From the NCBI GenBank assembly GCA_977017645.1, contig OZ360221.1:151156001-151220000 (forward strand): a stretch of DNA of 64,000 nt, in the 5' to 3' direction. Within the stretch, counting starts at the first letter, position 1, and each line of letters starts with the position of its first letter. Origin of the DNA: Torpedo marmorata. Lineage: Eukaryota. A program made the position numbers and the translations under genes. This document shows, in pieces, positions 7,261-40,057 of the stretch. The notes below the pieces were generated by a model, which made no database searches, was not told where the DNA came from, and saw only the letters and a list, made by a program, of their open reading frames with translations.

Positions 7261-10200
7261 TGATGAGCCCATCAATAACTTCAAAAGACTAGAAGTTGTA
7301 TTTGAACTGAAAGGCTTTTATTAGCAAAAGAATGGAGTTACATCCATGCTGGTAATCTGTCCCGGACTGGGGGAGGAGTGGTGGCACAATTGCCTTTATT
7401 CAGGGGGTCTGTGGGATGAGCCACCGGGACAGTCAGCAGAGGGCATGTCCAGACACATCACCCAGCCACAATCTATACAAAGTGGTTTACCACATTCACC
7501 CCTCCTTTTAAAAGAGTCCCACGGGATGAAGGATGTAACAATATTTACAAAAGAAATTACAAATGAGTATATTTACAGGTCGAGTCGATCAGGCGGTCGA
7601 GTCCGCCGCTGTGATCGGCGCAGTACTTGTGGTGATGGGGCAGGCGACGGTGCCGCCTCCTGCCTATTTGGAGGTACCAGCACATCTGGCGTCAGCAAAA
7701 CCTCGTGTGTGTATGCCGGTACGGGGGTCTCGTTTGGTGTCTGTTTTGAATTGGGTGGTGTCTCCTGTGTGTCTCTAATGGTAGGTGCAGGGGTGACAGT
7801 AACCATGGAGTGTTCGGGGGCAGGCACCATTGCTCCTGTGGGCACGAAGTCCCGGATGGAGACCATGTCTTCCCGCCCATCAGGAAAAACCACGCAGGCG
7901 TACTGGGGGTTCGCATGTAGTAGTTGAACCCTCTCAACCATCGGGGCATATTTATTGCTCCTGACATGTTTCCGGAGCAACACTGGCCCTGAGGACGTCA
8001 GCCATGCTGGTAGGTCAACTTCCTGGGGAAGGAAAAGAGTCTCTCATGAGGGGTGGCATTGGTGGATGTGCATAGCAGGGAGCGGATGGAGTGGAGTGCC
8101 TCGGGAAGGATTTCTTGCCAGCGGGAGACTGGTAATCACTTAGACCTGAGGGCTAAAAGTATGGTCTTCCAGAACGTGACGTTCTCCCTCTCCACTTGTC
8201 CATTCCCCCGGGGGTTATAGCTTGTGGTCCTGCTAGTCGCGATACCCCTGGCCAGCAGGTATTGGCGTAGCTCGTCACTCATAAGTGAGGACCCTCGGTC
8301 ACTATGGATATAGCAGGGGTATCCAAACAATGTGAAGAGTTTGCGGAGGGCTTTTATGACCGAGGTGGTCGTGGTATCGGGGCAGGGAATGGCGAAAGGG
8401 AACTGCGAGTACTCATCAATGATGTTGAGAAAGTACACATTGCGGTCGGTAGAGGGGAGGGGGCCCTTAAAGTCGACGCTCAGTTGCTCAAATGGGCGGG
8501 TTGCTTTGATCAATTGTGCCTTGTCAGGTCGGTAGAAGTGCGGTTTGCACTCCGCGCAGACTTGGCAGTTCCTGGTCATCGTCCTGACCTCTTCAAGGGA
8601 GTACAGCAGGTTTCTGGCTTTCACAAAGTGGAAAAGCCGGGTGAATCCGGGGTGGCAGAGGTCGCAGTGGAGGGCATATAACTGGTCAATCTGTGCGCTG
8701 GCGCATGTCCCCCGGGATAGGGCATCGGAGGGCTCGTTGAGCTTCCCAGGCCGGTACATGATATCATAGTTGGAGGTGGAGAGTTCGATTCTCCACCTCA
8801 GGATTTTATTGTTTTTAACCTTACCCCGCTGCTGGATGCTGAACATAAATGTGACTGAGCACTGGTCAGTCAGCAGGGTAAAACTTTTGCCCGCAAGATA
8901 GTGCCTCCAGTGCCTGACAGCTTCCACTATGGCCTTGGCCTCTGTCTCCACCACTGAGTGCCGAATTTCTGGGCCTTGAAGGGTACGGGAGAAAAATGCC
9001 ACCGGTCTTCCCGCCTGGTTAAGGGTAGCAGCCAGTGCGATGTCGGACGCGTCGCTCTCTACTTGGAAGGGAGTGGACTCATCCACCGCGTGCATTGCTG
9101 CTCTGGCAATGTCCCCTTTGATGAGGTCGAAGGCCTCACGTGCCTCCGCTGAGAGGGGAAAAGTGGTGGACTTGACTAGGGGGCGGGCCTTGTCTGCATA
9201 ATTAGGGACCCATTGTGCATAGTATGAGAAGAAGCCCAAGCACCTTTTGAGAGCTCTGAGGGTGTGGGGAAGCGGTAGTTCTAGCAGGGGGCGTATGCGG
9301 TCGGGGTCAGGACTGATGACTCCGTTCTCCACAACGCACCCCAGGATAGCGAGTCGGGTGGTTCCGAACACGCACTTATCCTTGTTATAGGTGAGATTAA
9401 GTGCTTTGGCCGCCTGGAAGAACTTCCGGAGATTGTTATCATTGTCCTGCCGGTCGTTACCGCAGATAGTAATGTTGTCCAGGTATGGGAACGTGGCCTT
9501 TAATGGATACCCCATTTGTGACCCCGAAGGAGACGCGTAGGAAGTGATAGAGCCTGCCGTCCGCCTCGAAAGTGGTGTAGGGGCGGTCCTCCCGGCGGAT
9601 GGGGAGCTGATGGTACGCAGATTTGAGATCTATGGTGGAGAATAGCTTGTACTGAGCTATCTGGTTCACCATATCTGCAATGCGTGGTAGAGGGTATGCG
9701 TCAAGCTGTGTGAACCTATTGACGGTCTGACTATAATCTACCACCATCCTATGTTTCTCCCCGTTCTTGACGACGACCACCTGAACCCTCCAGGGACTTG
9801 TGCTCGCCTCAATGATCCCTTCCCCAAGCAACCGCTGCATCTCCGACTTAATGAAGGCCCTGTCCCCTGCGCTGTATCTCCTGCTTTTGGTTGCCACAGG
9901 TTTATAGTCAGGGGTCAGATTGGCAAACAGAATTGGGGGAGGGATCTTGAGGGTGGATAGGCCGCAAGTAGTGTCTGTGATGCGGCTGCGCGTGTGGTGT
10001 GGCAAAATACGTCTGCCGTGTTTGAGAAATTGATGGTTACCGACAGTGATTGGTGGGAGGGGCCCGTCATACTCCATCGTCACACTTTGAATGTGACTCT
10101 GGAAGTCGAGCCCCAGTAGAATTGGGGCACACAGTCGGGGCATGACCAATAGTGTAAAGTCCCGATATTCAGTGTCCTGCTCCACTAGCGTCGTTACACA

Positions 10201-11682
10201 ACCTCTCCGAATGTCTGTTGTGTGCGACCCGGAAGCCATGGCGACGTTTGGCTTACCGGCTGTGTCGTGAGGCCGCATCGCTGCACCGTGTCTGGGTGGA
10301 TAAAGCTCTCTGTGCTGTCCGTGTCGAACAGGCAGTTTGTCCTGTGTCCCTCCACCAGAATGTCCATCATAGACCTCGCGAGTTGGTGGGGTGCACTCTG
10401 GTCGAGTTTAACGGATGCCAAAGTTGAGTCGCTGTCTTGATCCAATGTGATGGAGTGCTGGGTGTTCCGGGATGACGGCACCCTGTGTCGGCGCGATGGC
10501 GTCGAACAAAATGGCCACTCCCATGACTCGCATGTGTTTGCCGCGGGTAAGTAAGATGGCGACGACGGAAGTGACGACACACTAGGTGGCCGCCCCCATG
10601 TCTCGCAAATGGTGGCGCCGGACGGGCAAGATGGCGACGGCAACAATGGCGACCCCCATGCCTCGCAGGTGGCGCTGCTCGATCCCGCTCGCGGTTTAGA
10701 CTTATAGACCTTGGCGAAATGTCCTTTCTTCCCGCAGCTGGAGCAGGTCGCTTCTCAGGCTGGGCAACGTTTCTGGGGATGCTTTGTGAGTCCGCAGAAG
10801 TAGCATTTCTCGGTCTCGCGGCTGACGGCAACTGTGGTCGATTCACCGGCGTGGTGTGGGGTCTGCAGTATCCAAGGAGCCGGCGGCAGATCGCCCGCCT
10901 GGATAGCATAAGAGTTCTGCAACGCGGCTTCCAGTGCATCGGCCATCTCTATCGCCGAATGGAAAGTGAGGTCAGCTTGTTCCAGCAGGCGCTGGCATAC
11001 ACCGACCTGGTCGCAGTAACGAAAGTGTCTCTTACCAGGAGCTCCGCGTGTTGTTCGGCCGTCAGTCCTTGGCAGTCGCAGGCCCGCACGAGTGTCTGTA
11101 GGGCCCGGACGAACTCCGCGCTCGACTCACCGGGCCGCTGCTGCCACGTCGCTAGCCGGTGTCACGTGTAAACAGTATTAACTGGCCGTAAATATTGTCT
11201 TTTAAGGGCATTCATTGCATCTTCGTAAGTCCGCAGGTCTCGGATCATCGAGTAGACCCATGAGCTTAACCTAGAGAGGAGGACTTTGTGTTTTGCAGCG
11301 TCTTCTTCTACCTTGATCTCCTCCAGGAATGACTCAAAGCAGGCTAGCCAGAGTTCAAAAGCGTTGCCGGCCTCTGGTGTTTGTGGATCGAGGTCCAGCT
11401 TGTCTGGTCTCAAGACATTTTCCATGCTTACAAGTTTGCTAATAAAATTGATGAGCCCATCAATAACTTCAAAAGACTAGAAGTTGTATTTGAACTGAAA
11501 GGCTTTTATTAGCAAAAGAATGGAGTTACATCCATGCTGGTAATCTGTCCCGGACTGGGGGAGGAGCGGTGGCACAATCACCTTTATTCAGGAGGTCTGT
11601 GGAAGGAGCCACCGGGACAGTCAGCAGAGGGCATGTCCAGACACATCACCCAGCCACAACCTATACATAGTGGTTTACCACA
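7261..11682 (-). mobile_element. Full-length Gypsy LTR retrotransposon A (TGTGGTAAACCAC LTR group)
   Basis: 234-bp LTRs 7261-7494 and 11449-11682 (about 8 differences), 5-bp TSD CCAGT (7256-7260 and 11683-11687), PPT AAAAGGAGGGGTGAA next to the 3' LTR. Confidence 0.97.
7573..11425 (-). pseudogene. Disrupted gag-pol of Gypsy A (Gag, CCHC, protease, RT, RNase H, integrase)
   Basis: ORF pieces MENVLRPDKL..., CYFCG...C, LFDTDS protease site, YPLP/IDLKSAYHQ/YLDN RT, ESDASD RNase H, HPG...C..C and DFKG/HSDRGS/ERE integrase; several frameshifts and a deletion in RT near 9505. Confidence 0.95.
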
Positions 11683-12215: not shown

Positions 12216-13396
12216 GCAACATTGAGGGCCGAATGGTCTGTGCTGAGCTGTGATGTTCTATGTTCTCTATGTTCTAAGTTAAATTACCTACCATTTAGGA
12301 ATAATTACAAAATATAGGAATAAATAAAAGACTCTTAGTTGGCAGCAAGTGTTACGCGAGATTTAAATCATGTTCGGTGGGTTCAGAGAGAAGTGAGTCC
12401 AGACGCAGGCTAACAAAATGGATGATCTTTATTGTACATACGGGAAAATTGTAACGGGGAAGACACAAGACAACACCTGATTCTAAAACAATATAGGCAT
12501 TCACATCGGATATAGCGATCTCCGATACCAATGGCCACCTACTCTCTCTCTTTATTACACACAAGCAATAATAATTGGTAACTAACACACTCTTACAAGA
12601 CAGAGACTTTAACACGCACTCTCGGTTCCATGTACCAACGGGGTGCGGCTCAATGCTAAGTATTCCCACACAATACTATGGTCCCACTCTCAGTGTAGTG
12701 CACACCTTACCAACGACTCTTCCAGCGATGTCCACAGTTCTCGGCCTGGCGTAGAGCAGTAATCATAGTCAGGACCAAGGAGCAAAGAGAGACTGATCAG
12801 CTGCACATGGTGGGCTTTTAAAGTGCAGTAAGCTGGGGAACTGGCCCAGGTAATGTAATAAGTTAAAGGGGCCAATGGTCAGGTGTGCACTAATGGGTGT
12901 GCAGAGTCCAACCTTGATTGGCAGGTGATGCGACTTCCAACTAGGTTCCAGTTAGAGAGGTCACGTGACCCTCCACAATCCACATTCCCAACAAGTTCCA
13001 GATGAAGAGGCCACGTGACCCTTCACAATCCACTCTACATTCCACCCCTCGGAAGTCACACCACTCGCCAATCATCTACAAACTTGATCAATAACATTAT
13101 GTACAATGGTTAACAGAAAAAGAAAATAAATCTTCAACTGACAGGTTACGATACTTATACTAAATGATGTGTACACAAACCGTGCAAATCAAAATGTACA
13201 ATAAATACAGAGGTAACACAAGTGCCTTTAAAATGAGGGACAAGGCACATCAGCAGGGGAAGGTGATGTTTCTGGAAATGACAACACTCCACCAGCTCTT
13301 CCCCTGAATGAACAGGGTCGTTGTGTTCCCGATGGAGTGGTGTGCTGCGGGAACTGCTCCCCAGTGTGAGAGAGGAGGAAAATAATTGTTTTTTAG

Positions 13397-14200
13397 TCAC
13401 TGATTCACATACGTTGTCTCTCCGACTTGACTGGCATGTATGTGCACCTTTGCCACCAACATCAGGACCAGTGCCACCACCAACTGCGACAGGCAGTGCA
13501 AGGCCATCCTTCAAGTCCCATAGCCCTTCCTTGAGCAGCACTTCCCATGCATTGGCCATCCATCCGGGCGCTCCCCTGTCATTGTGAGGCACACAGCCCA
13601 GATGTCCACCGCCGTGCTGTCCCATGGGGAAGCAGGGGTCGGCCCGGCAGATGTGCATCGAGGGCATTCCGGTACTTGCCTGGGAGCGCCCCCATTTTTC
13701 TGGCTACTGTCTGGCACCAGGATGCAGTTCCGGCTCACTTTCTCTCTGTGCATGGACCAGTATCTACTGAAATGGGTGCAACATATGGCCTGCCCTGGCT
13801 CATTTAACGGACTCACATGGAGAGTCAGGACTGTGTAGTTTCCGAATTAAGAGTATTTATTAAAAAAAAGGTTCCTGAAGCACTCACTCCATGGGGAATT
13901 GTTAGGAGTGGTGTTATGGTGGGGGGGGGGGGTGGGGGCGAGAGTAGATGAATGCTGTCATTACTGAAAGGTTACATTGTGAAAGTGTTTATACAAAATG
14001 CTCCTGCTGCTGCCATTGGCTGGTGGTGATGGGTGGAAGACCGTCAGAAGCAGTGATGAGAGCGCAGCAGTCTGGAGTGGAGGTGCTGTGGGCGTCTCAA
14101 TGTTGTGGTCTTCCGTAGTGCTGAGCTTGAAGTGTAGTTGGTCTGCAGGGTGGGTGGGAATATCTCACTCTCTTTTTGAGAGTCTGTTAGTGTGTGGCAT
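13397..14200 (-). pseudogene. Env-position ORF remnant: short putative type I membrane glycoprotein
   Basis: Reconstructed by hand across stops and frameshifts: hydrophobic AALSSLLLTVF, sequons NGS/NVT/NDS/NTT/NYT, Cys-rich body (ORF 13511-13816), then after one TGA in the same frame MALHCLSQLVVALVLMLVAK...TYVNQ*. Confidence 0.4.
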
Positions 14201-15128
14201 GACAACGACATTTCTCCCGGGAATGCAACCCATCGCGTGTCTGCCGGTCCGCGTGCAATTACTTCCCCCTTTTTAGCTGGACCCTGTGGCTACCGGACTC
14301 CTCAGAGTCTTGTAGGTTAACCTCGTCTGTTTTCTGTAGGTCTGAAGTGGACAAATGTCGTGAAACCAGGGACCTCCCCCCACTCCCGTGCAGTGGGGTG
14401 CAGGTTTAACTGGTCCACCGCTTTTTGCAGCATGCTGAGCCACCCCTTCAACGTGTCGTCGGGTGTCAGCGTGCGCAAATTTTGTTTGAGGAGAGCATTC
14501 ATCCCTTCAATGAGCCTGGATGCCAATGGGTGGTAGGGGATGTGCAGCAGCCAGGCTCCACCGCCCAGTTCTGTATTTTGGTCCCCGTAAAGTGTGAGCC
14601 CTGATCAGACTGAACCTTCCACGGGACTCCATAAATGGAGGAGAGGTACTACAGTCCTTGGATAGTGTTGTCCTGGTTGGCCCCCTCGCAGGGCACTGCC
14701 CCCAGGACACCAGAGTAAGTGTCCACCATCGTCAGGAAGAAGCTCCTTTTATTTTGGCATTTGAGAGGGCCGACATAGTCTATTTGCAAGACTTGGGCAT
14801 CTCCCGTGCCGCGACATACTGTCTGTGCCCCGGTGCACTCGTCGGCCAGCCCTGTGGTTTAGTCAGCTGGCAGGTGGGACAATTATCCACCACTGTCCGT
14901 GCCTCATCATGAGTAAGAGCCACCCCTAAGTCCTCCCCACACCGTCGCGTGCTGTCAGAACCCCGGTGGCCGCACTTTCTATGCGCCCATGCTGCCAGGG
15001 CACTGGAATCTGTATCGTCGTAGTGGGTGGAGGCTGAGCAGATTTGCACTGCATGGTCCACGGCAGCGTTATGTGTGACTCTGCCGTGTCCCTATTGGCA
15101 TGGGCTTCCACAAGGTGAACCGTGAGCA

Positions 15129-15617
15129 ATTGATTTAGCCGTTTCAAAAAAATGCATTGCTATTACTTGGAAATCAGATTTAGATTTAAGTTTAGAAAGG
15201 TGGCATGCTGAACTTCATTCGTGTATACCATTAGAAAAGATTACTTATAATTTACGCAATAAGTATCTTTTTTTTTTGAAAATTTGGAGCCCATATATGA
15301 GAGTTATGGGTTTAACGATTTGAAAATCTCTAGATATCAGGTCTACTGGCGAGTTTAACCTCCATGATAGAATTAGTTTGTAGATGGTTCTCCCCTCACT
15401 ATTATTCTATCTTTTTCTTCTTTTTTTTACTATACTTCATATTTTTTTTTATTATATATTTTTTTAATTAGAATAGTGGGGATGGGGGGGTTTGGGACGG
15501 GAGGGTGGGTACGGGGGGAGAAAATATATATCACATGTATTTTGAAAGCTATACATTTTAATCTATGTATTTTGTGATTTAAAAATTTAAATAAAATAAT
15601 TTTAAAAAATTTTTAAA
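15129..15617 (+). mobile_element. 5'-truncated L1 inserted in ERV pol
   Basis: 17-bp TSD AAGGTGAACCGTGAGCA (15112-15128 and 15618-15634), ORF2 C-terminus KKCIAITWKS...CIPLEKITY like that of 56048-58912, A-rich tail. Confidence 0.92.
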
Positions 15618-17125
15618 AAGGTGAACCGTGAGCACCCTCTACCCAGCCTGCTCCCAGACATACTTACTTCCAGTGCTGCTGGCCCCAAAGCGGGCGGCTG
15701 TGAATCTGCCACCTCGTGTCGTGCCAGCGGGCCATCCACAACGCCATCCCATTCACCACTGCCCATGAGTCCGTACAGATACGGAGTGGACCCATTGTTT
15801 CTTTAATCGTGAGAGCTACCGCAGCCAGCTCCGTGAGCTGACTGGATCCTCCCCTCCCTTGCTGAGTCAGGGTCTTACCAGTGGCGGGGTGTAGAGCCGT
15901 TGCTTTCCATAGCTGCCTTCCATTCTTCCAATGACTCGAGTCGTCTGTAAAACATACCTGCTGTTGTTTATCGAGGGAGTCGTACGGCTGACCCCAGGAC
16001 ATGGGAGAGAGATGTACATCAGGGACCTTGGGAAGCGGACCCTCACTCTCGGGGAGGGACATGACTTGCCTACTGACCCCCTCTGCCCCATCCTCTGCCC
16101 GGTCCACGATGTACCATCTCCATTTTACAATGGAGGACTGCTGGGCGCGGCCCTCTTTGTGGGTGTCATCAGTGGACTCGACCCACCGCATGATGGGTAG
16201 GTAAGGCTGGAGTATTATGGTCTCAGCAGCCGGTTGGTGCTCCGTGGTGAGGAGTGCCAGATAGCACACCAGGAGCTGGCGTTCAAAAGGGCTGTAAAGG
16301 GAGGCGGGCTCGGTGAAGGTTTTGGTCCAGAAGCCGAGTGGAACTCTGCGGCCATTAACTTTCTGCCAGAGACTCCACTCGGCCATGGTGTTGGTGGCGG
16401 AAACTTGAAGTTCAAAGGGGACCCCTGTCTGTCGGGAGGCTAGCGGCAGTACCTGCTCAATAGCCTGCTTAGCCGTGTCAAACGCCATCTGCTGCTCGGG
16501 ACCCCAGTGGAACCTGACTTTTTTCCTGGAGACTGCATAAAGCGGGCGAACAGCATGATGAGGTGGGGAACATGCTGCCACCAGTAGCCTAAAAGGCCGA
16601 CGAAGCTCTGGATCTCGGCTTTATTGGTGGGCACCACAGTGTTTAAAATTTTATTCTTGGCCACCTCCAGAATGTTCCTCTTCCCTGAGTGGCATTGAAT
16701 ACCCAGGAAGAGGACCGTGTGGCTGGGGCCCTGGACCTTCTCTGGGTTGACTGCCCAGCCATGGGCACGGAGTCCTGAGGTCAAAGACTCTAGTGCTTGC
16801 GCTATGATCTCTTCGGCGAGGCCCTGGAGGAATATATCATCGATGTAATGGGTGAAATCGACGTCAGGGGGAAGGGCAATATTTTTTGCATCGCAGGCTA
16901 TTAATCCGTGGCAGAATGTGGGGCTGTGTATGTATCCCTAGGGCGGCTGACAGAAGGTGTATTGAGTGCTCCCCCAGGTAAAAGCAAACTGGTGCTGTGA
17001 AGAAGGACTCAAGGGGATGGAAAAGAACATATTGTTGAGGTCCACCATGGCATACCAACGCTTGGTGTCCATGCCCCCGATGTCCTCCGCGAAGGTGACC
17101 ACATCAGGAATAGCAGCAGTGAGAG

Positions 17126-20100
17126 TGTGGTAAACCACTGTTATGTGTATTGTGGGCTGGGGATTAGTATGGGCATGTCCTGCTGTCTGTCCCGGTGGCT
17201 CCTCCCCTTCCCTGGCTGTCCTGGTAACCCCTCCCCCTTCCTCCCCCGAATAAAGGCTCTTGTGCCACTGCTCCACCCTCAGTCCGGGATAGATCAGCAG
17301 GTCAACTGTAGCTTCCTTTATAGATAATAAAAGCCTACTGTTCGTATTCTACTCATCGCCTCTTGAATATTATTGATAGGCCTATCAATTTTATTATCTA
17401 TAAAAATCTGATGGAGAGCGCCCTGAGACCGGACAAGTTGGACATCGATCCACTAGCTCCAGACGCCGGTAATGCTTTCGAACACTGGCTGCGTTGTTTC
17501 GAGTCTTTCTTAAGGACGATCAAGGCGGAAAGCGAGGACGAGAAACAGATGGTCCTCGTGTCCAGGGTAAGCCCTCGGTTATATTCAACGATCCGGGACT
17601 GTAAAACCTACGTGGTGGCTATGGATGCCCTAAAAAGAATATATATAACGCCAGTTAACGCGGTCTACGCAAGGCACCGGCTATCAACGCAGCATCAGCG
17701 GCCCAGGGAGTCGATCATCGAGTTTGTCAGGGACATACAGTCGCTGGTGCGGGCGTGCGACTGCAAAGCGCTGACGGCAGAGGAACATGCGGAACTGCTG
17801 GGGAGAGACACCTTTGTCATGGGGATCAGGTCGGTATACGTGCGCCAGCGGCTGCAGGAGCACGCCGACCTGGACCTCCGTACCGCGGTTGCAATGGCCC
17901 ACATGCTGGAGGCCGCGCTGCGGAACTCTGACGCCATGCAGGCGCGCGACCTCCAGCCGGCCACGTGGACAGCCCCATCCCCCAACCCTGCCAGCGAGCT
18001 GACCGCCGCCGCCGTCTGCCGCGACCCGATTACCGCCGCCGCAATCCGCGAACTCACCGCCGCAGCCGTTAACCGCGAGCCCAAGAAATGCTATTTCTGC
18101 GGGCTCGATAAGCACCCACGCAAACGCTGCCCGGCCCGAGACGCGACCTGCTCCAGCTGCGGCAAGAAAGGCCACTATGCAAAGGCCTGCCGCTCTAAGC
18201 CACGAGCGGGTCCGAGCAGCACCACGTGCGAGATATGGGAGCGGCCATCTTACCTTCCGTCACTTCCGGCGTCGTATTTGCCCATAGTTGCGACCTCGTG
18301 CGAGGAGTGGAGGCGGCCATCTTTGACACTGGCACTTCCGGCGCCGCCATCTTACAGCACCACATCGGCACTTCCAGCACTTCCGGTGCCGCTATCTTGC
18401 AGCTCCAGCAGCCGTGACACGTGCGACCCACGGGGGCGGCCATCTTCTTCAGCGCCGGATCAAGACGACTACATCCCGACTCTAGCATCCGTCACCCTCG
18501 ACCAGAGTGTGCCCCACCAGCTGTCCCGATCCATGATGGACATCCTGGTGGAGGGGCACAAGACCACCTGCCTGTTCGATACAGGCAGCACGGAGAGCTT
18601 CATACACCCGGACACAGTGCAGCACTGTGGCCTAACTACCGTACCGGTAAGCCAGAGGTTGGCCATGGCGTCCGGGTCGCATACAACGGACATCCAGGGG
18701 GGTTGTGTGGCGAACATTGTAGTACAGGGAACAGAATATCGGCACTTCTCGTTATTTGTTATGCCTCGTTTGTGTGCGCCGGTATTACTGGGACTTGACT
18801 TCCAGAGTCACTTACGAAGTGTCACGATGCGCTACGACGGCCCCCACCCTGCAATCACTGTAGCGAACCACCAGTTCCTGGACAACACGCCTCAGACTAC
18901 CTGTGGTCTCTCCACACTTAAGGTCTCACCCCCGTCGCTATTCGCCAACCTGACCCCTGACTGTAAGCCCGTGGCAACCAAGAGCAGGCGATACAGTGCA
19001 GGGGACAGAGCGTTTATCAAGGCGGAGGTGAAGCGACTATTACAGGAGGGGATCATCGAGCCAAGTAATAGCCCCTGGAGAGCCCAGGTAGTCGTGGTAA
19101 AAGGGGCCAAGAGCAGGATGGTGGTGGACTATAGTCAGACTATTAACCGATTCACGCAACTGGACGCATACCCACTGCCACGAATAGCGGATATGGTGAA
19201 TCAAATAGCCCAGTATAGGCTACTTTCGACTATAGATCTGAAGTCAGCATACGACCAGCTCCCTATCCGTCGGGAGGACCGCACGTACACCGCTTTCGAG
19301 GCAGACGGCAGGCTGTTCCATTACCTGCGCGTTCCGTTCGGAGTCACAAATGGGGTGTCCGTATTCCAGCGGGAGATGGACAGGATAGTCAATCAGTATA
19401 AACTTAAAGCCACCTTCCCATACCTGGACGGCATCACCATATGTGGTCATGATCGCCAGGATCATGATAACAACCTTCGGAGGTTCCTGCAGGCGGCCAA
19501 GGCGCTAAACCTCACGTATAACAAAGATAAATGCGTGTTCGGGACCACCCGACTCGCCATTCTGGGGTGCGTCGTCGAGAACGGGGTTATTGGACCCAAC
19601 CCCGACCGCATGCGGCCCCTGCTGGAACTTCCGCTTCCCCTCACCCCCAAAGCCCTTAAACGATGCCTCGGGTTCTTCTCGTACTATGCGCAGTGGGTCC
19701 CTAATTATGCCGATAAAGCCCGACCCCTTGTCAAATCCACCACGTTTCCCCTCGCATCGGAGGCACGTAAGGCTTTTGACCTTATAAAAGGGGACATTGC
19801 ACGAGCAACAATGCACGCGGTGGATGAATCGACATCTTACCAGGTGGAGAGTGACGCATCGGACTTCGCGCTGGCTGCTACCCTCAACCAGGCGGGAAGA
19901 CCGGTGGCGTTCTTCTCACGGCCCCTCCAAGGCCCCGAAATTCGGCAATCCGCGGTTGAGAAAGAGGCCCAGGCCATAGTGGAGGCTATTAGACACTGGA
20001 GGCACTATCTCGCCGGTAAGCATTTTACCCTGCTGACAGATCAACGCTCTGTTGCGTGTATGTTTAACACCCAGCAGCAGGGTAAGATCAAAAACGATAA

Positions 20101-21694
20101 GATCATGAGGTGGAGAATAGAGCTCTCCACCTACAATAACGATATCCTGTACCGGCCCGGGAAGCTCAATGAGCCCTCCGATGCTCTATCCCGGGGATCG
20201 TGCGCCAGCGCGCAGATCGACCGATTATACTCCCTACACTGTGACCTCTGCCACCCAGGAGTTACCAGGCTGTTCCACTTCGTGAAAGCCAGAAACCTGC
20301 CCTACTCCCTGGAAGAGGTCAGGACAATGACCAGCATTTGTCGGGTCTGCGCGGAGTGCAAACCACAGTTCTACCGCCCCGACAAGGCACAGCTGGTCAA
20401 AGCCACCCGCCCTTTTGAATGTCTCAGCATCGACTTCAAGGGCCCCCTTCCCTCCACGGACCGCAATGTGTATTTCCTCAATATCATTGACGAATACTCG
20501 CGGTTCCCCTTTGCCATTCCCTGCCCCGATACTTCGGCTACCTCTGCCATTAAAGCTCTTCGCCAGGTATTTACTCTATTTGGCTTCCCTAGCTATATAC
20601 ATAGCGACCGGGGATCAGTTTTTATGAGTGAGGAGCTGCGACAGTACCTGCAGGCCCGGGGCATCGCCACTAGTAGGACCACGGGGTACAACCCACGGGG
20701 TAACGAACAAGTGGAAAGGGAGAACGCCACTGTCTGGAAGGCCGCGCTCTTGGCTCTCAAGTCCAAGGGACTGCCGGTCTCCCGCTGGCAAGAGGTTCTC
20801 CCCGAAGCCCTCCACTCTATCCGGTCCCTGCTGTGCACGTCCACAAATTCAACCCCCCACGAACGACTTTTCTCCTTCCCCAGGAAGTCGACCACCGGAA
20901 CCACCCTACCTGCCTGGCTGACGTCCCCGGGACCTGTGCTGCTCCGCAAGCACCTTCGGAGCAGCAAATACGAACCTATGGTCCACAGGGTGCAGTTAGC
21001 CCACGCTAACCCTCAATATGCCTACGTGGTCTTCCCTGATGGGCGGGAAGACACAGTGTCAATTCGCGACCTGGCGCCCGCAGGAGCGCCGGGAGAAGCC
21101 CTCGACATGGAAGACCAATTGTCGCAGCCCCTCCCCATCCCCCCCCAGCACGTCAGCTCCAGCACCCTCGCCAGGGCCGAATGCGCCACAAGAAGCCAGG
21201 TAGGAGGCAACTCTGCAGACAACCCTGACATCTCCCCCATCACCACAACCCGCCCCGTCACCGCGGATACTACGCAGGTCGCAGCGGCGGATCAGACCGC
21301 CTGATCGGCTCGACCTGTAAATGTGAATGTATATATCTGTTTATATCTTCAGTTTTTCTTGCATTTGTATCTTGTAAAATAATCACAGTGGCCACGTCAC
21401 CCCGTTGGATTCTTTTAAAAAGGAGGGGTGAATGTGGTAAACCACTGTTATGTGTATTGTGGGCTGGGGATTAGTGTGGGCATGTCCTGCTGTCTGTCCC
21501 AGTGGCTCCTCCCCTTCCCTGGCTGTCCCGGTAACCCCTCCCCCTTCCTCCCCCGAATAAAGGCCCTTGTGCCACTGCTCCGCCCTCAGTCTGGGATAGA
21601 TCAGCAGGTCAACTGTAGCTTCCTTAATAGATAATAAAAGCCTACTGTTCGTATTCTACTCATCGCCTCTTGAGTATTATTGATAGGCCTATCA
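17126..21694 (+). mobile_element. Full-length Gypsy LTR retrotransposon B (TGTGGTAAACCAC group) inserted in the ERV RT
   Basis: 262-bp LTRs 17126-17387 and 21433-21694 (about 8 differences), TSD GAGAG, PPT AAAAAGGAGGGGTGAA; the ERV RT frame joins across the insertion (RKLNKVS..LTAAIPD). Confidence 0.97.
17411..21304 (+). CDS. Single-frame Gag-Pol polyprotein of Gypsy B (about 1297 aa)
   Basis: ATG 17411 (MESALRPDKL, homologous to the element A start); two Zn knuckles, LFDTGS protease, RT, RNase H, HHCC/DDE integrase. The native end RRSQRRIRPPDRLDL* (21320) is in another frame, implying a frameshift in the tail. Confidence 0.93.
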   Translation: MESALRPDKLDIDPLAPDAGNAFEHWLRCFESFLRTIKAESEDEKQMVLVSRVSPRLYSTIRDCKTYVVAMDALKRIYITPVNAVYARHRLSTQHQRPRESIIEFVRDIQSLVRACDCKALTAEEHAELLGRDTFVMGIRSVYVRQRLQEHADLDLRTAVAMAHMLEAALRNSDAMQARDLQPATWTAPSPNPASELTAAAVCRDPITAAAIRELTAAAVNREPKKCYFCGLDKHPRKRCPARDATCSSCGKKGHYAKACRSKPRAGPSSTTCEIWERPSYLPSLPASYLPIVATSCEEWRRPSLTLALPAPPSYSTTSALPALPVPLSCSSSSRDTCDPRGRPSSSAPDQDDYIPTLASVTLDQSVPHQLSRSMMDILVEGHKTTCLFDTGSTESFIHPDTVQHCGLTTVPVSQRLAMASGSHTTDIQGGCVANIVVQGTEYRHFSLFVMPRLCAPVLLGLDFQSHLRSVTMRYDGPHPAITVANHQFLDNTPQTTCGLSTLKVSPPSLFANLTPDCKPVATKSRRYSAGDRAFIKAEVKRLLQEGIIEPSNSPWRAQVVVVKGAKSRMVVDYSQTINRFTQLDAYPLPRIADMVNQIAQYRLLSTIDLKSAYDQLPIRREDRTYTAFEADGRLFHYLRVPFGVTNGVSVFQREMDRIVNQYKLKATFPYLDGITICGHDRQDHDNNLRRFLQAAKALNLTYNKDKCVFGTTRLAILGCVVENGVIGPNPDRMRPLLELPLPLTPKALKRCLGFFSYYAQWVPNYADKARPLVKSTTFPLASEARKAFDLIKGDIARATMHAVDESTSYQVESDASDFALAATLNQAGRPVAFFSRPLQGPEIRQSAVEKEAQAIVEAIRHWRHYLAGKHFTLLTDQRSVACMFNTQQQGKIKNDKIMRWRIELSTYNNDILYRPGKLNEPSDALSRGSCASAQIDRLYSLHCDLCHPGVTRLFHFVKARNLPYSLEEVRTMTSICRVCAECKPQFYRPDKAQLVKATRPFECLSIDFKGPLPSTDRNVYFLNIIDEYSRFPFAIPCPDTSATSAIKALRQVFTLFGFPSYIHSDRGSVFMSEELRQYLQARGIATSRTTGYNPRGNEQVERENATVWKAALLALKSKGLPVSRWQEVLPEALHSIRSLLCTSTNSTPHERLFSFPRKSTTGTTLPAWLTSPGPVLLRKHLRSSKYEPMVHRVQLAHANPQYAYVVFPDGREDTVSIRDLAPAGAPGEALDMEDQLSQPLPIPPQHVSSSTLARAECATRSQVGGNSADNPDISPITTTRPVTADTTQVAAADQTA

Positions 21695-22299
21695 GAGAGA
21701 GAAACTTTATTTAATTTCCTATAGTCTATTGTCATCCGCCACGTGCCATTCTTCTTACGGGCGGGCAAGATTGGAATGTTGTAGGGGGACAGAGCGGGTC
21801 TAATGACTCCCTCACGGAGTAATGCATCAATCGCTTCCGCAATCTCTTCAGTGCCTCCTGGCACCTGATACTGTCAGGTGCAGACCACCTCGTGGGGGGG
21901 GGGGGGGGCAGGGCGGAATGATGACCGGAGTCCATTTGGCGGCTCCGAACCCGATGGTTGCCCGGGCAACCCCGAAGGTGAATTTCCCCTTATCGGTGCA
22001 CAGCGACTGCCCCTTAAGTACATTCATGCCAAGAATACACTCGGGAGAGACTGTCACCAGGAAAGGGATGGGACAGGGAGTCTCGCCGCCGATGGAGAGG
22101 CAAAGGGTGACTTCTCTGGCAGCGAGAATTGAGCCACCTAGCCCCTCTATAGAAACCTAGGTCCCCTCCACCCATCGGGGTTCCCGTGGATAATAATATG
22201 CTCGGCCCCGGTATCAACCAGCGCCATCCAGTGCTGGGTATTCCCCTTTTCCCAGTGTCCGGCTACTGGGATAAATGGCCTCGGGTCACCCGGGCGGGA

Positions 22300-23932
22300 T
22301 AGGACCACTAAATGGATTCACCAGGGGCCCTGGTCTCCATCCTATGGAACGGGGCGCAGGTGTGTTTGGTGTGACTTTGAATTGGCCATTTCCTGTTGCA
22401 CCAGGGAGATAATCTCTGCCTTGAAGGCAGCATGGGGCCACCTCTGGTGGGGGAGGAGCAGAAGGCTGAGTAGTCTAGGGTAAGGTGGACGGGGCAATGG
22501 GTGCTCTGTCCTGCTTCCACCCACAGTGCTCCAGCCACAGAGCGAACATGGCGGAGGTGGAGATACCATAGATGCGGGCATGATCCACGCCAGCACATGG
22601 CAGGGCAAAGTACATTTCCCTGTGGGTTAATGGGAAAGTGATCTTACTGATCTTAGAGTCAGCGGGGACCCCCTGTGCGGGTGCTCCCCACTCCATATAC
22701 TCTCGCCCTTCCTGAAGGGTGATGGCTTCCCGGACCGTCTTACCGGTCGCCGGTCCCATCAAGAGCAAGACCACCCGCTTTATTTTTTTTAAAATTTTAT
22801 TTAAAAACCACCTCCTTGAGATCAGGGTGGGCGGTGGTTACTAGGTGGCCCGCCAAGGTGGCAGTTACCCTGGCGTTCACGTGCAGGGATGGGACGGGGA
22901 GGTTGCGCCCACGTTGCCCCCGTAGATGCTGTTAATGAGGGCCAATTACCTGATCACCTTCGTGCCCTCACTGACCGTGTGCCACTACGGCCGGCCATTC
23001 AGGTCCTATTCCAGGAGCGTGGGGAACCTGGACCGCACCGCAGCCACCACCCGATCCCACAGGGTGGTGCCCTCATCAATCCCTTCGATTTGTGAGGTGT
23101 TGTTCACTGTCTGCTGCGCTGACAGGCTGCCCAGGGAACTGGCCTCGAGATGGGAGAGGCGGATATGGGGAGCCTTCTCATCTCACGGCTGGAGCAGCCA
23201 TGCGGCCAAGTGCTTGATTGGCTGCTGGCGATATCTATCTCCCAGCCCGGTTAACTCTTGGTGTAGTCCAGGGTCTCTATGACCTTGTAACGGCCACTCG
23301 ACTGTCCACTCGCCCTCTCCCCATAACCAGCTGCCTCCCCTTGGGGAGGACAAGCGGGGTGGGGGATCCTCGTGGCGTGTCAGGGACCGCATGGCCACTG
23401 GCTGGGCTTGCAAGTTCTCGGGTATGCAGGGGGAAGGATGCATGTAATGGGACTCAGCCTCCTCATAGTCATCATCGTCCATCCACACGTCCCCATCCCC
23501 CAAACACATGTCGCCCTCTCCTCCATGCATGATAATGGCCCTTTTCTTAATGGGATCGACCTGCCAGCCAGATCGGCGGGCTGCCTGCAGCTGCCGCACT
23601 TTGACCAATCGGCAGGCAGCCTCAGTATATTTGGCCTCAAGGCTGCTGATGCGCGCCCGGGCTGTGTCCAGTGCCTCCTGCAGTGAGCCACGGGGGTGCT
23701 TCAGGGACTCAAGCTGCTCATTTTTCTGAGCAGCCTGTATTGTTAAATTCTTAGTGATATCCCACTGGCGCCTCAGCAAGGATATCAGCAACCATAGGGC
23801 TCCCCCACGACTCCCCCTGCTTTCGGGAAATCCTGATTCCTCCAAGAGGGAGGCCACATGGTGCCCAAACATTTCCCCGCGGTGTCCAGCTTGTCGGCCC
23901 AGTCGACCAGTATCGCGTGGCCCGCCTGCCAA
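22300..23932 (-). pseudogene. ERV gag, class III/Fv1-like, disrupted
   Basis: Coiled-coil N-terminus, GDGDVW motif and ELTGLGDRYRQQP...AWLL capsid motif typical of ERV-L/S Gag; no CCHC knuckle seen. Confidence 0.8.
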
Positions 23933-23985
23933 GCTGCTAGCTTGCTGAACCCCTGACTATGTTCTGTCCACCCGGGGATCCTAAT

Positions 23986-25466
23986 TTAAGATTTCAGATT
24001 TCAGATTTATTGTCAGAGTACATACATGCCATCACATACAACCCTGAGATTCCTTTTTCCTGCGGGCGCGGCAGAATTACCACTAATTGGTAGTGCAAAA
24101 AATAAACTATACACAGCGAAAACATGTAAACAAATAAAAGAACTGTAAACAGATAAGGAATATAAACAAACTGACTGTGCAATACAGAGAGAACAAAGAA
24201 AATCAATAAAGTGCACAAGTGAGAGTCCTTAAATGAGTCTCTGATTGACTTTGACGTTGAGGATTCTGATGGTGGAGGGGTAGCAGCTGTTCCTGAACCT
24301 GGTGCTGCGAGTCTTGTGGCACCTATACCTCTTTCCTGATGGCAGCAGCGAGAACAGAGCGTGCGCTGGGTGATGTGGGTCTTTGATGATTGCTGCTGCC
24401 CTCCGACGGCAGAGTTCCCTGTAGATGTACTCAGTAGTGGGGAGGGTTTTGCCTGTGATGACCTGGGCTGTGTCCATTACCTTTTGGTGGGCTTTACACT
24501 CAGGGGCATTGGTGTTCCCATACCAGACGGTGATGCAGCCGGTCAGCACCCTTTACCACGCATCTGTAGAAATTTACCAGGGTTTCTCGTGTCATACCAA
24601 AAGTCGGCAAACTCCTGAAGAAGTAAAGGCGCTGACGTGCTTTCTTCACGATGCCATTGGTTTGTTGGGCCCATGAAAGATCCTCCGAGATAGTGACTCC
24701 CAGGAACCTAAATTTGCTCACCCTCTCCACCTCTGATCCCCCAATGATCACTGGATTGTATACCTCTGACTTTCCTTTCCTGAAGTCTACAATCAGCTTC
24801 TTAGACATTGAGTGCAAGTTGTTGTTGGTGCACCATTCAGCCAAGTTTTTAATCTCCATCCTGTATGCTGACTCATCCCCTTCCTTTATACAACCCACTA
24901 CCATGGTATCGTCGGCAAATTTGTAGATGGTGTTATTGTCGTACCGAGCTACACAGTCATAGGTGTAAAGTGAGTAGAGCAGGGGACTACGAACACAGCC
25001 CTGTGGTGCTCCGGTACTGATGGAGATTGTGGAGGAGACGTTCTTACCAATCTTCACTGATTGTGGTCTGGAGGTGAGGAAATCCATGTTCCAATTACGT
25101 AGTGGGGTGTGAACTCCCAGGTCTTGGAGTTTGCTGATCAGTTTTGAGGGGATGATGGTGTTAAATGCTGAACTGTTGTCGATAAAGAGCATCCTGATGT
25201 ATGCATCTTTGCTGTCCAGGTGTTCCAGGGCTTTGTGTAGAGCAGTGAGATGGCATCCGCCATAAACCTGCTTCTACGATAGGCGATCTGGAATGGATCC
25301 ATGTCACCGCTCAGACAGGAGCTGATATGCTTCATCACCAGCCTTTCAAAACACTTCATCACTGTTGATGTAAGTGTTACTGGTCGATAGTCGTTAAGGC
25401 AGGTTACTACACTCTTCTTGGGCACCGGTATGATTGACGCCTGTTTGAAACAGGTGGGTACCTGCA
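23986..25466 (-). mobile_element. Rex1/Babar-type LINE, 5'-truncated, in the ERV leader
   Basis: [15 protein letters not shown]...[20 protein letters not shown]; tail (AAATCTG)n at about 23990-24008; same family as 43960-45182. Confidence 0.92.
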
Positions 25467-25495
25467 ACTCGTGGGTCGCCTCCTGCCGCTCCCGT

Positions 25496-25625
25496 NNNNN
25501 NNNNNNNNNNNNNNNNNNNNNNNNNNNNNNNNNNNNNNNNNNNNNNNNNNNNNNNNNNNNNNNNNNNNNNNNNNNNNNNNNNNNNNNNNNNNNNNNNNNN
25601 NNNNNNNNNNNNNNNNNNNNNNNNN
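25496..25625. other. Assembly gap (N run)
   Basis: 130 N. Confidence 1.
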
Positions 25626-25662
25626 TTAGTTATTGTGCCTGTGTCTGGCCGAGACTCCTTGA

Positions 25663-25680
25663 ACCCTGCTCGCAGAGCCA
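25663..25680 (-). promoter_or_regulatory. ERV primer-binding site, tRNA-Ser(UGA)-like
   Basis: TGGCTCTGCGAGCAGGGT, 2 nt after the 5' LTR; 16/18 match to the complement of the vertebrate tRNA-Ser(UGA) 3' end as I recall it (TGGCGCAGCGAGCAGGGT). Confidence 0.8.
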
Positions 25681-27104
25681 ATTGTTACGAGAGATTTAAA
25701 TCAGGCTTGATGGGTTCACAGAGAAGTGAGTCCAGACGCAGGCTAACAAACAAAGGATGATCTTTATTTTACACACGGGAAAATAGTAACGGGGAAGACA
25801 CAAAATAACACTTGATTCTAAAACAATATAGGCATTCACATCAGATACAGCGATCTCCGATATCAGTGGCCACCTACTCTCTCTCTCTTTATTACACACG
25901 TGCAGTAATATTCAATAACTAGCACACTCTTACAAGACAGGGACTTCAACACACACTCCCAATTCCCTGTACCAATGGAGTGTGGCTCAATGCTAAGTAT
26001 TCCCACACAATACTACGGTCCTGCTCTATGTGTAGTGCACACCTTAACGAAGACTCCTCCAGTGATGTCTACAGTTCGCGACCTGGCGTAGAGTCGCGTT
26101 CGTAGTTAGGACGAAGGAGCAAAGAAAGACTGATCGGCTGCATGTGGTAGGCTTTTAAAGTGCAGTAAGCTGGGGAGTCTGGCCCAGGTAATCAGTAAGT
26201 GATTTAAAGGGGCCAATGGTCAGGTGTGCACTAATGGGTAGCCAGAGTCCAACCAAGATTGGCAGGTGATGCGACTTCCGACTAGTTTTCAGACGGAGGT
26301 GTCATGTGACCCTACACAATCCACATTCCCACCAAGTTCCAGACGGAGAGGCCACATGACCCTCCACAATCTACACTACAGCAAGCAAGAACATTTTCCT
26401 GCAGATTGCTTCTAAAAACATTGCCTGTTAATATTTATGGGCTGTACCAGTATTAAGCTTGAACCAAATCATTTTCCTTCAATTTATGATGCATTTTGTC
26501 CTCAAACTTTTAGGCTTGCAATACTTCACTCTTAAGTGCACATTTTTATTTTGTACAGAAGGAGACAGTTTTGATATTAACCGAGCAAGTGTTTAATTGC
26601 ATTATTTCAAGGAGAATAAGTAAGTAAACAGAATAAGTAAGTAAAAGTAAGTAAGTATCCAGTGGTGGATATTGAGCTATCCAGCCAATCAAGGATGAAC
26701 AGAAATCACTGGAACCAGAGACTCAACCTAAGAATGCTGAATTATTATTTAACAATTTATAAATTTTCAAATTTTGTCAATACTTATGTCTTAACACTTT
26801 AAGCCATTGTTAAAGAATTAAAGCTTCAAAAAAGTTATGAAATTATTTTTATAAAACTTCTTATCACAATGTTCTTCTGAAAGTTTTGGAGCAGTCCCAG
26901 GAACATATCAATTTAGTTTCCTTCCTGCATCAGCTGTTATGCAATATAAGTTATAGAAAGAGAGTATTGCTGTCTCCAAATAGCTCCCTTCTCGAATCTC
27001 TTCACTTTACTGGTGATGCGGGCACTAAAGTCATGTCTACGAGCTAACATGAATATTGCAGCATTTAGCAGTGTGTTTTCTGGGGACACACTCCCTGGAT
27101 AATA

Positions 27105-32543: not shown

Positions 32544-34351
32544 TGATGCGCCTGTAGCCGACTGCTTCGAAGAAACACACACATGCAGTGTGGAAGGTTA
32601 AGCTCTCTGCTTTATTGAGGCTGGAAATGCTTCTTTTATACAGTTGGAGTTCCCGCCGTTTGGTTGATTGGTTGACATCAGCCGCAAGAATAACAATAAC
32701 GGGGGAACGTTCTTGCATATGAATACCCTTCTTCCCCAGCCTGGTATTGATCTGTTAGCTGGGCAGCTTGGCCAGCACCATTTTAGGGCTGCTGGTCTTG
32801 TACTGCTCCAGCTTTCAACCGCGCCGGTTTGCTATGCTAAGGGTTAGTTACAGTGTGTTATGCCGCTGTTTATTACCGCGCGTGCCGGCTCGATATCCGC
32901 GGTGGCGGGCCGCCACATGACCCCCACCCCAGAACCAGCGCTACAGTTCATAGTGTCCGTGGATGCAGTCCCAAATGTCTTTGGTGGTCTGCCTCTGCGC
33001 CGAGGTGCTGGCATCTCCACGGGTTGTGTCGGGTCCGTGTGTGCCGGGTTGAGCCTGTCTGCGGTGAAGACCTCTGGTTTGCCACCGATGTCCAGTTCGA
33101 AGGTGGCCCATTGTTCCGGACGACTCGGAAGGGGCCTTCGTAGGGCTTCTGTAGCGGTGGACGGTGTGGCCCTCTGCGTGCGAACACGTACTCACAGTCT
33201 TGGAGTTCTTTAGGGATGTTGAACTTGCCTTGCCCGTGTCTGGAGGGTAGGATCGGAGCCAGGTTACCGACCTTTTCCCGCAGCCTGTCCAGGAAGGTGG
33301 TTGTATCCTCCTGTTGACCTCCGGCCGGTGGGACGAAATTCCCGGGGACCATGAGTGGAGCTCCGTAGACGAGCTTGGCGGAGGATGTGTGGAGGTCTTC
33401 CTTCGGGGCTGTATGAATCCCCAGCAGTGCCCATGTCAGTTTGTCAACCCAGTTGGGGCCCTTGAGTCTGGTCATAAGGGCGGCCTTGAGGTGCCTGTGG
33501 AAGTGCTCAACCAGTCCGTTAGACTGCAGGTGGTATGATGTTGTGTGGTGTAGCTGAGCGCCCCACAGGTTGGCAACGTCGGTCCACAGGCTGGAGGTAA
33601 ATTGTGCACCTCTGTCGGAGGTTATGTGGCGTGGTAGCCTGAACCTTGCTACCCAGGACGAGACGAGTGCCTTGGCGCAGGACCTGGTGGATGTGTCGGC
33701 CAGGGGGATTGCTTCTGGCCACCGGGTGAAACGGTCGACCACCGTGAACAGGTAGCGGAAACCCTGTGAGAGTGGTAAGGGCCCCACTATGTCCACGTGA
33801 ATGTGGTCAAACCTTCACTCCGTTAGTTCGAAAGGCTGCGGGGGGACCTTGGAGTGCCGCTGTACCTTGGCTGTTTGGCACTGTGTGCATGTCTTGGCCC
33901 ACCCGCTGACTTGTTTCCACAATCCATGCCACGTGTACTTGCTGGCCACCAACCGGACCGTGGACCTGATTGATGGACGTGCCAGCCCGTGGATGGAGTA
34001 GAAAACTCGTCGCCTCCACGCCGTTTTAGGGCTGCTGATCTTGTACTGCTCCAGCTTTCAACCGCGCCGGTTCGCTATGCTAAGGGTCACGTTTACTACC
34101 GCGTGCTGCCACACGCCATCAATTACTTCAAAAGACTAGAAGTTATATAGAAATTGATAGGCTTTTATTAACAACAGAATGGAGGCGTCCATGATGGTCG
34201 CCTGTCCTGGACTGAGGAGGGAGCTGTGGCACAGTCGCCTTTATTCAGGGGTCTGTGGGAGGAGCCACAGGCACAGTCAGCAAGGGGCGTGTCCAGACGA
34301 ACTATAACAAGTACTAACACAGCCACAACATATATACAGTGGTTTACCACA
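32544..34351 (-). mobile_element. Solo LTR of the TGTGGTAAACCAC group, split by the 32553-34113 insertion
   Basis: TGATGCGCC (32544-32552) plus 34118-34351 ending GTGGTTTACCACA; TSD GTACC (32539-32543 and 34352-34356); clearly similar to the element A LTR. Confidence 0.9.
32553..34113 (-). mobile_element. Internally deleted CsRn1-like Gypsy (integrase, 3' LTR and 5' LTR stub)
   Basis: 4-bp TSD CGCC; 3' LTR 32553-32917; PPT GGGGTGGGGGTCA; integrase ORF 32948-33796 (DIVGPLP, DRFTRWPEA, TSDRGAQF, PYEGPF); LTR stub about 34024-34113. Confidence 0.9.
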
Positions 34352-35584: not shown

Positions 35585-35750
35585 TGATGAATATACGTGG
35601 AAATGGATGGAGGTCAAAGAAGACGCCTATCTCTCTCACCTCACCCTCACATACTTACTATTACAACATTCACTTCACCAGTTTGCAGGTTCCACATACT
35701 TTCAGACATCTAGCTGTGGCAGGCAAATTACTCAGACTCATTAGAGCACA

Positions 35751-38700: not shown

Positions 38701-40057
38701 GCAACGAAGGAACTTATGGCAGCCAAGTTCATGTGGCATGGGTTGTGCAAACAGGTCGGCAACTGGGCCAGAGCTTGCATCCCCTGTCAAACCTCCAAGA
38801 TTCAGAGACACATCATGCCGCTGCAGACGTTCATCCTGACACACCGGCGTTTCGACCACATCCACGTCGTCATCGTTGGACCGCTCCCCCCACCCAGAAG
38901 TGTCACCCACCTCTTCACCATCGTTGACAGATTCACAAGGTGGCTGGAGGCCGTTCCCGCTCTCGGATACCTCCACTGCGACCTGTGCACGTGCCCTCAT
39001 CGCCCACTGGATCGCTCTCTTTGGCGTGCCGGCGGACATCTCCTCCGACAGAAGTGCGCAGTTCACCTCCGAGCTGTGGTCAGCAATGGCACGGCTGCTT
39101 GGCACTAAACTGCACCACACAACGGCCTACCACCCGCAATCAAATGGCATAATGGAACATTTGCACCGGCACATGAAGGCATCCCTCAAAGCACGGCTCA
39201 CGGGCCCAAACTGGATGGACGAATTGCCGTAGGTCATGCTAGGATACGCACTGCCCCCAAGGAGACCTGGCAACTTCCTCGGCCGAGCTGGTGCACGGTG
39301 CCCTGCTTACGGTCCCAAGGACTTCATCCCGACTGCGCATGCACATCAAGAAATGCCCACGACCGTGCTGACGCACCTCCGTGAGGAGGTGGACACGCTT
39401 TCTCCAGTCCCAACATCCCGACACGGTCTCACAGCCACGTACGTCCCACCCGACCTCAAGGACTGCCAGTACATTTTCCTTCGCCGAGATTCCCACCGTA
39501 CACCTCTGCAAAAGCCTTACAAGGGACCCTTCAGAGTACTGCAAAATGACGCTACGGCTTTCATCATTGACATGGGTGGCAGACACGAGACGGTCTCCAT
39601 GGACCGTCTTAAGCCGGCAAACTTGGACATTGACCAACCAGTGCAGGTGGCACAACCCCACCGCAGAGGGCGACCACTCTCACGACCAAACCCGCCCTCA
39701 ACTCAACCATCTGCAACCCTGAACACGGGAGACACATGCACAAGATCAGGCCGCCTCACTCGACAGCCTAACTGTCTCCAATACTCTGGTTCTGGGGGGG
39801 GTCATGTGGCGGTCGAGCCACTTAGATCTCAAACCGTCATTCGGCGGGGTTGGGCACTCACGAGAGCTCAAGCACTCGCGGGAGCTAGAGCACTGGCTCT
39901 TATCTGAGAGAGCAGCTGACACGACGCACGGGACCACAGCGCGTCTTCTTGTCTTTTGCGGCCGGCAAGTTAAAGCGTCCCTTGTCCATTGACGGTTTTG
40001 TTGAGCTGTAATGTTAACCATTAAACTCAGTGTTTAGACAAAATGCGAACGACTTCA
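35751..40057 (+). mobile_element. Full-length CsRn1-like Gypsy LTR retrotransposon
   Basis: LTRs 35751-35982 and 39805-40057, 4-bp TSD CACA, PBS TGGTGACCCCGA (tRNA-Trp) 35984-35995, G-rich PPT. Confidence 0.95.
36003..39800 (+). pseudogene. Disrupted gag/pol of the CsRn1-like element
   Basis: LKLPTFW Gag start, CYYH...C..PC knuckle, FLVDTG protease, YLDD RT, TVDASG RNase H, HGLAHP...C..C/DRFTRW/SDR integrase; several stops and frameshifts. Confidence 0.93.

Follow-up and report, generated by a model that had tools for sequence, protein, structure and literature searches.

Tested cases of self-primed reverse transcription reportedly rest on Tf1 of fission yeast and its kin. In Tf1 and Tf2 of S. 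pombe, Tj1 of S. japonicus, Tosmo/Tcry1 and the Tf1/sushi group, the PBS complements the element's own LTR beside the terminal CA, and in the Tf1/sushi group a U5 duplex adjoins and the RNA is cut between primer and template (passages of PMC7175516, PMC4600332 and bioRxiv 2022.12.06.519325). The cut in Tf1 is made by RNase H (PMC7175516, in part), and the primer sequence is copied into DNA at the cDNA ends of Tf1-type elements (PMC11042837, in part). Passages on the fission-yeast elements place the transcription start at the 5' end of the self-primer and describe a three-duplex 'pretzel' (bioRxiv 2022.12.06.519325, PMC4600332). Self-priming was also predicted for the plant elements Tcn1 (Gypsy) and TAR/Houba/Osr-1 (Copia) from PBS-LTR complementarity of at least 10 bp, so with TAR it was already proposed outside chromoviruses (passages of PMC6317226). 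These elements belong to another superfamily or clade and to plant hosts, and those passages hold no breakpoint evidence. Bivalve TRIMs lack a PBS and have a different structure (PMC6934838, in part). In the literature we searched, we found no account of self-priming for animal Gypsy elements outside the chromoviruses; Repbase and subscription journals were outside this scope, so an earlier notice may exist there.

Here we analysed element B in a 64-kb stretch of Torpedo marmorata DNA, hereafter the window. Like the Tf1-type elements, B has a PBS complementary to its own LTR beside the terminal CA, a predicted adjoining U5 duplex and a predicted cut between primer and template. The Tf1 primer is the first 11 nt of the RNA, with the start at the 5' end of the pairing, whereas in B a 14-16-nt pairing would end a piece of about 52 nt. 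Unlike that of Tf1, the pairing ends in AAA and, across the lineage of B, often spans AATAAA. The predicted folds contain the primer helix and one neighbour helix, with no conserved third duplex seen, in contrast to the three of Tf1; the neighbour helix recalls the 'pretzel' (bioRxiv 2022.12.06.519325, in part). B thus has the self-complementary PBS of the Tf1/sushi group and no tRNA PBS, but it lacks the C-terminal integrase chromodomain, and read-through ends at A17281 point to a start 36 nt ahead of the pairing. Since the chromodomain is absent and the primer start appears to lie apart from the pairing start, the tested features place B outside the Tf1/sushi group.

Element B and its neighbours in the window

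The features of B, of element A and of a lone LTR from a third subfamily are collected in Table 1. The initial annotation had reported that a perfect 16-nt complement of an LTR segment takes the place of a tRNA-type PBS after the 5' LTR of B, and we found exactly this, with 56 nt between the arms. It had also described the same pairing with identical spacing in element A; the spacing is indeed 56 nt, and the pairing there covers 13 bp. The polypurine sequence GGGGTGAA followed by TG is the same in B, L044 and L104. A-type subfamilies carry the same TATA-like motif as B at a comparable spacing to the Inr.

Table 1. Coordinates of element B, element A and a related lone LTR in the window.
Feature	Position	Strand	Remarks
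Left target-site duplication GAGAG, 5 bp	17121..17125		Right copy at 21695-21699
5' LTR, element B	17126..17387	+	TG...CA, 262 bp; TG start corrected to 17126
TATA-like AATAAAGG	17249..17256	+	32 nt upstream of the Inr-like A; putative role
Inr-like CAGTC	17280..17284	+	A17281, putative transcription start and 5' end of primer RNA
Putative self-primer RNA, ~52 nt	17281..17332	+	Placed by breakpoint ends; both ends in copy L148
PBS-pairing 3' part of primer	17317..17332	+	AATAAA within, at 17326-17331
Putative RNA cleavage site AAA/GCC	17332..17333	+	Precision ~1-2 nt; from U5-piece starts and family conservation
Predicted second helix	17333..17381	+	GCCTA 17333-17337 with TAGGC 17377-17381, abutting the primer helix
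One-base spacer A, LTR end to PBS	17388	+	Same in 20/21 families
Self-complementary PBS TTTTATTATCTATAAA	17389..17404	+	No TGG; exact reverse complement of 17317-17332
Single gag-PR-RT-RNase H-IN ORF, 1297 aa	17411..21304	+	No chromodomain, no SH3_Tf2-1 domain
Polypurine tract	21417..21428	+	Followed by TGAA, then 3' LTR
3' LTR, element B	21433..21694	+	97% identity to 5' LTR
5' LTR, element A	11449..11682	-	Paired segment 11504-11516
Self-complementary PBS, element A, 13 bp	11435..11447	-	Pairs with 11504-11516; 56-nt loop as in B
3' LTR, element A	7261..7494	-	Element spans 11682-7261; target duplication ACTGG
Lone LTR, third subfamily of B's lineage	34116..34351	-	Primer-segment sequence differs

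The two LTRs of B differ within the primer segment (T at 17319, A at 21626). The variant in the 3' LTR complements the leader variant of copies L013, L023 and L028, a pattern that would arise from a PBS trailing behind changes in the LTR. Positions 17373-17388, which close the U5 of B, form a perfect 16-nt palindrome; element A has a near-palindrome of other letters.

B has the hallmarks of Ty3/Gypsy elements, namely the domain order PR-RT-RNase H-IN, TG...CA LTRs, a polypurine tract and a short target duplication. Its best relative among solved structures is the Ty3 RT (E 1.6e-51). A missing chromodomain was among the first claims on this element, and it was borne out: none was found in the ORF of B, in 12 of the 12 relatives scanned or in the precomputed domains of 120 listed homologs. 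The SH3_Tf2-1 domain is likewise absent from the ORF and from the 12 relatives scanned. The SH3_Tf2-1 matches that we retrieved from this genome belong to other elements, mostly with a Pro-type PBS. Five chromodomain-near regions of the genome, which we sought as chromoviral references for a tree, contained no RT.

The window holds three other LTR elements that retain a leader (49307 ff.; about 35982 ff.; minus strand below 25679). All three have TGG after the LTR, as annotated; their labels Pro, Trp and Ser are presumptive. The 64-kb window contains no tRNA genes. An older LTR element on the minus strand (12346-26380, LTRs 86% identical) encloses the nested B, and has a TGG-type PBS and an additional RNase H-type domain at 15664-16620. 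At 48359-54412 lies a SCAN-domain Gypsy element with a Pro-type PBS and the integrase before the RNase H, a domain order that we take to be Gmr1-like. It has an integrase region in common with the element at 35749-40057, and a separate rve fragment at 32948-33814 resembles 38724-39677.

Lineage and leader-LTR pairing

For ORF residues 500-1000, the nearest named homologs among the 120 best of 1225 matches come from rays and a catshark (75-83%), and the next from sea anemone and nematodes (55-63%). The lineage is therefore present in vertebrates, as the label 'vertebrate Gypsy group' had implied, but it is not specific to them. In a quick RT-RNase H tree, 28 lineage rows, L042 and L046 among them, formed one group with an SH-aLRT of 100 against two outgroup elements from the same genome; L115 was left out, as was any locus lacking a long RT match, and no clade name follows from this tree. 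Eight of ten relatives compared (P0007, P0008, P0014, P0021, P0033, P0057, P0019, P0081) have Y(L/M)DN in place of the usual YxDD motif of RT, and P0005 and P0107 keep YLDD.

The Cigr-1 clade of Ciona and molluscs (RepeatMasker class Gypsy-Cigr) combines one ORF of about 1200 aa with LTRs of about 245-250 bp and a Mag/SURL-like Gag. The ORF and LTR sizes of B fit these non-diagnostic features in a comparison by description, and Cigr-1 is a possible identity for the lineage. The clade is present in molluscs and annelids (passages of PMC6238403 and PMC8556966). The words 'PBS', 'primer' and 'self' have 0 occurrences in the main text of PMC6238403.

From a profile scan with a 45-protein alignment came 80 metagenome loci, the highest-scoring of 559, together with 5 on MAG contigs. 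We inspected the region upstream of gag in 44 of these 85 and sorted the readable leaders by eye into 19 families, which together with A and B make the 21 families of the covariation set. L047, L057, L073, L079, L080, L087, L109 and L112 were left out for want of an intact 5' end. No relatives were found in viral contigs, and an atlas search returned only generic Gag clusters. Five complete or partial elements (L111-L115) lie in contigs filed as bacterial MAGs, which probably reflects host contamination.

At its best register the leader matches the LTR at no fewer than 13 of 14 positions in 18 of the 21 families, and the remaining three reach 12, 12 and 9. When leaders were set against the LTRs of other families, at least 13 was reached in 3/420 comparisons. 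Over helix positions 4-14, most positions are filled by two to four kinds of Watson-Crick pair, and the AAA/TTT pairing at the junction is found in all 21 families. The base after AAA is G or A in 21/21 and is followed by C in 19/21. Loop length between the arms varies from 24 to 66 nt. In this geometry the 3' end of the paired segment faces the base one nt beyond the CA of the LTR, and the spacer A is present in 20/21 families. Alignment of the two LTRs gave the LTR end in 10 families; the CA-A-TTT motif gave it in the other 11, so that the motif itself is circular there. Pairing of leader and LTR is not due to chance. In the Torpedo genome itself, 83 of 90 gag-anchored copies, chosen as the best protein matches, have at least 13 of 14 positions paired, and 20 versions of the leader 14-mer occur. 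Among the other seven, four have no intact LTR or leader and three are paired at 10-12.

The overlap of the pairing with the poly(A) signal, also claimed for B, holds for B, and 15/21 families have AATAAA or ATTAAA inside the helix. It is not universal: pairing persists where the hexamer reads GTTAAA, TTTAAA or GATAAA, and L032 has a free AATAAA downstream, outside the primer helix. A second helix of at least 4 bp from the first loop base is possible in 16/20 families (L068 left out), with 4.8 expected from shuffles; its predicted pairing probability is low in about five families. The predicted fold of B covers the leader up to the ATG (z -2.2). Outside the 21-family set, L042 has a 12-nt pairing that reaches the contig end, and in L046 no pairing was found in 119 nt of leader.

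Breakpoints of aberrant copies

A long primer that stays linked to the strong-stop DNA should give rare copies in which the LTR end is joined to LTR complement past the PBS. A pattern search of this genome found 37 such places in family B, next to 1154 normal exact junctions, and 112 in A-type families, 9 of them in family A. This makes 149 aberrant places, with 0 in the reversed-pattern controls. These copies, with breakpoints that pile up at the predicted points, are the new observation of this work. We retrieved 138 places and analysed 137 after removing one sequence duplicate. Since the search junction lies in 14-16 nt of homology, it is undiagnostic in itself, and we used the far ends, scored only where they join element-internal sequence.

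The left ends are captured U5 pieces (n=48, after dropping fold-backs, copies continuous with the gag start or the 3' LTR, L313 and copies without an internal partner). Nine of them start within -1..+2 of 17332/17333, 35 lie no further than +5 and 13 lie past +5; the density is 0.62 per nt inside the cut window versus 0.067 beyond. Their partners are scattered, distinct and distant internal positions, so the events look independent. The right ends are read-through complements (n=28 finite; L327 was dropped as a duplicate of L326). Nine fall within -3..+2 of the Inr-like A17281 and 27 reach at most +16; the eight beyond +2 lie at +7, +8, +8, +9, +13, +15, +16 and +49. With window centres predicted beforehand and widths set after inspection of the data, the pile-up had a P of 6e-8 overall and 6e-4 locally (within the loop) for the left ends, and of 8e-7 overall and 0.004 locally for the right ends. 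The supply of four-mer microhomology is at most about 1.8-fold up at the cut and is not raised at the Inr; it fails to explain the peaks. The 13 left ends past +5 and the eight right ends past +2 mean that other templates or upstream starts contribute.

The right-end data reject a start at the beginning of the pairing, as in Tf1, and disfavour a start at 17333. Right ends at the Inr would equally come from a switch onto uncut RNA. L148, a minus-strand copy, carries between internal positions a piece with one end 1-2 nt inside the cut and the other 0-8 nt past the Inr A. It has the form expected of a copy of the whole primer-plus-strong-stop molecule and would then record a covalent link between primer and DNA.

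In the 24 fold-back copies the turn often lies at the cut; GGC/CTTTT microhomology confounds this, and these copies were omitted from the left-end count. Six copies (L278, L297, L308, L311, L316, L333) share one 7-nt fold-back insertion at the cut, which reflects either one LTR variant that was replicated or an event that recurred. The pattern match of L268 looks fortuitous, and the left side of L265 is flanking DNA. A search for poly(A)-tailed copies gave one place, which mapped no poly(A) site.

Probable priming by the element's own RNA, and other readings

We consider it probable that element B, a chromodomain-less Ty3/Gypsy element, primes its reverse transcription in cis with its own RNA. 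Self-priming had been suggested from the pairing in B and A, and the covariation and the breakpoints of the aberrant copies now argue for it. The same evidence favours the proposed start at A17281, with the paired stretch 36 nt internal, and the proposed strong-stop product of about 100 nt, which would consist of about 52 nt of RNA and about 56 nt of DNA. The transcript would start near A17281, 32 nt after the TATA-like AATAAAGG, and fold so that 17317-17332 pairs with 17389-17404 beside the short second helix. It would then be cut at 17332/17333, by analogy with Tf1 probably by the element's RNase H. The 5' piece of about 52 nt, paired only over its last 14-16 nt, would prime the minus strong-stop DNA of about 56 nt. 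We infer that the first strand transfer uses the short stretch from the cut to the poly(A) site. A possible second role of the same helix is to hide the 5' AATAAA from polyadenylation.

The same segment might instead prime in trans or from the 3' R copy, supplied by a co-packaged RNA or a lone-LTR transcript and possibly cut by a host nuclease. The segment does occur in both LTRs and in lone LTRs, the case for RNase H as the cutter is the Tf1 analogy, and five aberrant copies (L137, L155, L339, L346, L351) run on through U3 and the polypurine tract into the 3' internal region. However, the U5 template apparently ends at the primer's own end base (the 9/48 left ends at the cut), the second helix couples the cut in cis to U5, and the finite read-through ends lie at the Inr and not in the 3' internal region (27/28 at or inside +16). 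We regard this variant as unlikely.

We find it very unlikely that the helix merely hides the 5' poly(A) signal while some host RNA primes. The poly(A) hairpin of HIV-1 is a helix able to hide the 5' AAUAAA. It lies in R/U5 of a tRNA-primed virus, whereas the partner strand in B is the PBS. The hexamer lies within the helix in 15/21 families, and since the leader is present only at the 5' end, such hiding would be 5'-specific. The pairing is nevertheless retained with the altered hexamers and in L032 with its free AATAAA, and its register always sits one base off the LTR end. Families differ in their PBS letters and share no tRNA-like end, which speaks against a host RNA. Occlusion also predicts no template end at 17333, contrary to the breakpoints, and no poly(A)-tailed copy mapped a site. 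Still more improbable is an inverted repeat that serves packaging or translation, with the aberrant copies arising as DNA-level inversions between the arms. It would accord with the predicted fold up to the ATG and with the 9/137 copies in which the gag start directly adjoins the inverted piece. A plain inversion between the arms fits 1/137 (L323), and most partners are distant and at differing internal positions. The LTR end also has no other primer site.

If priming by the element's own RNA is true, it would be a second self-priming design. The lineage, which lacks a chromodomain, is very abundant here (1154 exact junctions in one family) and has invertebrate relatives at 56-63% identity. 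Priming without tRNA would then be common in animals and have probably arisen more than once, and the site at which tRNA fragments target tRNA-primed elements would be missing from such elements. The 3% of aberrant copies in B may be the cost of a long primer. A primer of about 52 nt also raises the question of where plus-strand copying stops, normally after about 14-16 nt. The breakpoint approach itself yields coordinates that are exact and open to testing, and it is applicable to other elements of high copy number. We give somewhat less than an even chance to a tentative joint picture: a widespread non-chromoviral Gypsy lineage came to self-priming independently of Tf1; its long primer is capped and is cut immediately after the poly(A) hexamer; a single helix yields the primer and also shuts off the 5' poly(A) signal; host splicing puts the primer together in some families; and failed products fixed in the genome map cut and start.

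Only with a putative GT-AG intron removed from the LTR (the best of 18 GT sites) does the pairing in L068 lengthen from 9 to 13 bp, a gain that points to function at the RNA level; this case is one contig with a collapsed (TA)n run. At L068:105 and L068:4162 the primer segment is apparently split by the putative intron, and the spacer is ATA instead of A. Pyrimidine-rich, acceptor-like AG sites lie in the LTR 20-100 nt before the cut in L042, L044, L051, L059, L096, L107 and L115. Many members of the lineage may have introns in the LTR or use trans-splicing. A search for the Inr in invertebrate-type LTRs gave no fixed spacing. L100 and L111 carry the motif CGCCATNTT, which we take to be YY1-like, about 40 nt before the cut and just behind an Inr-like site; this position would suit transcription that starts about 45-50 nt ahead of the cut.
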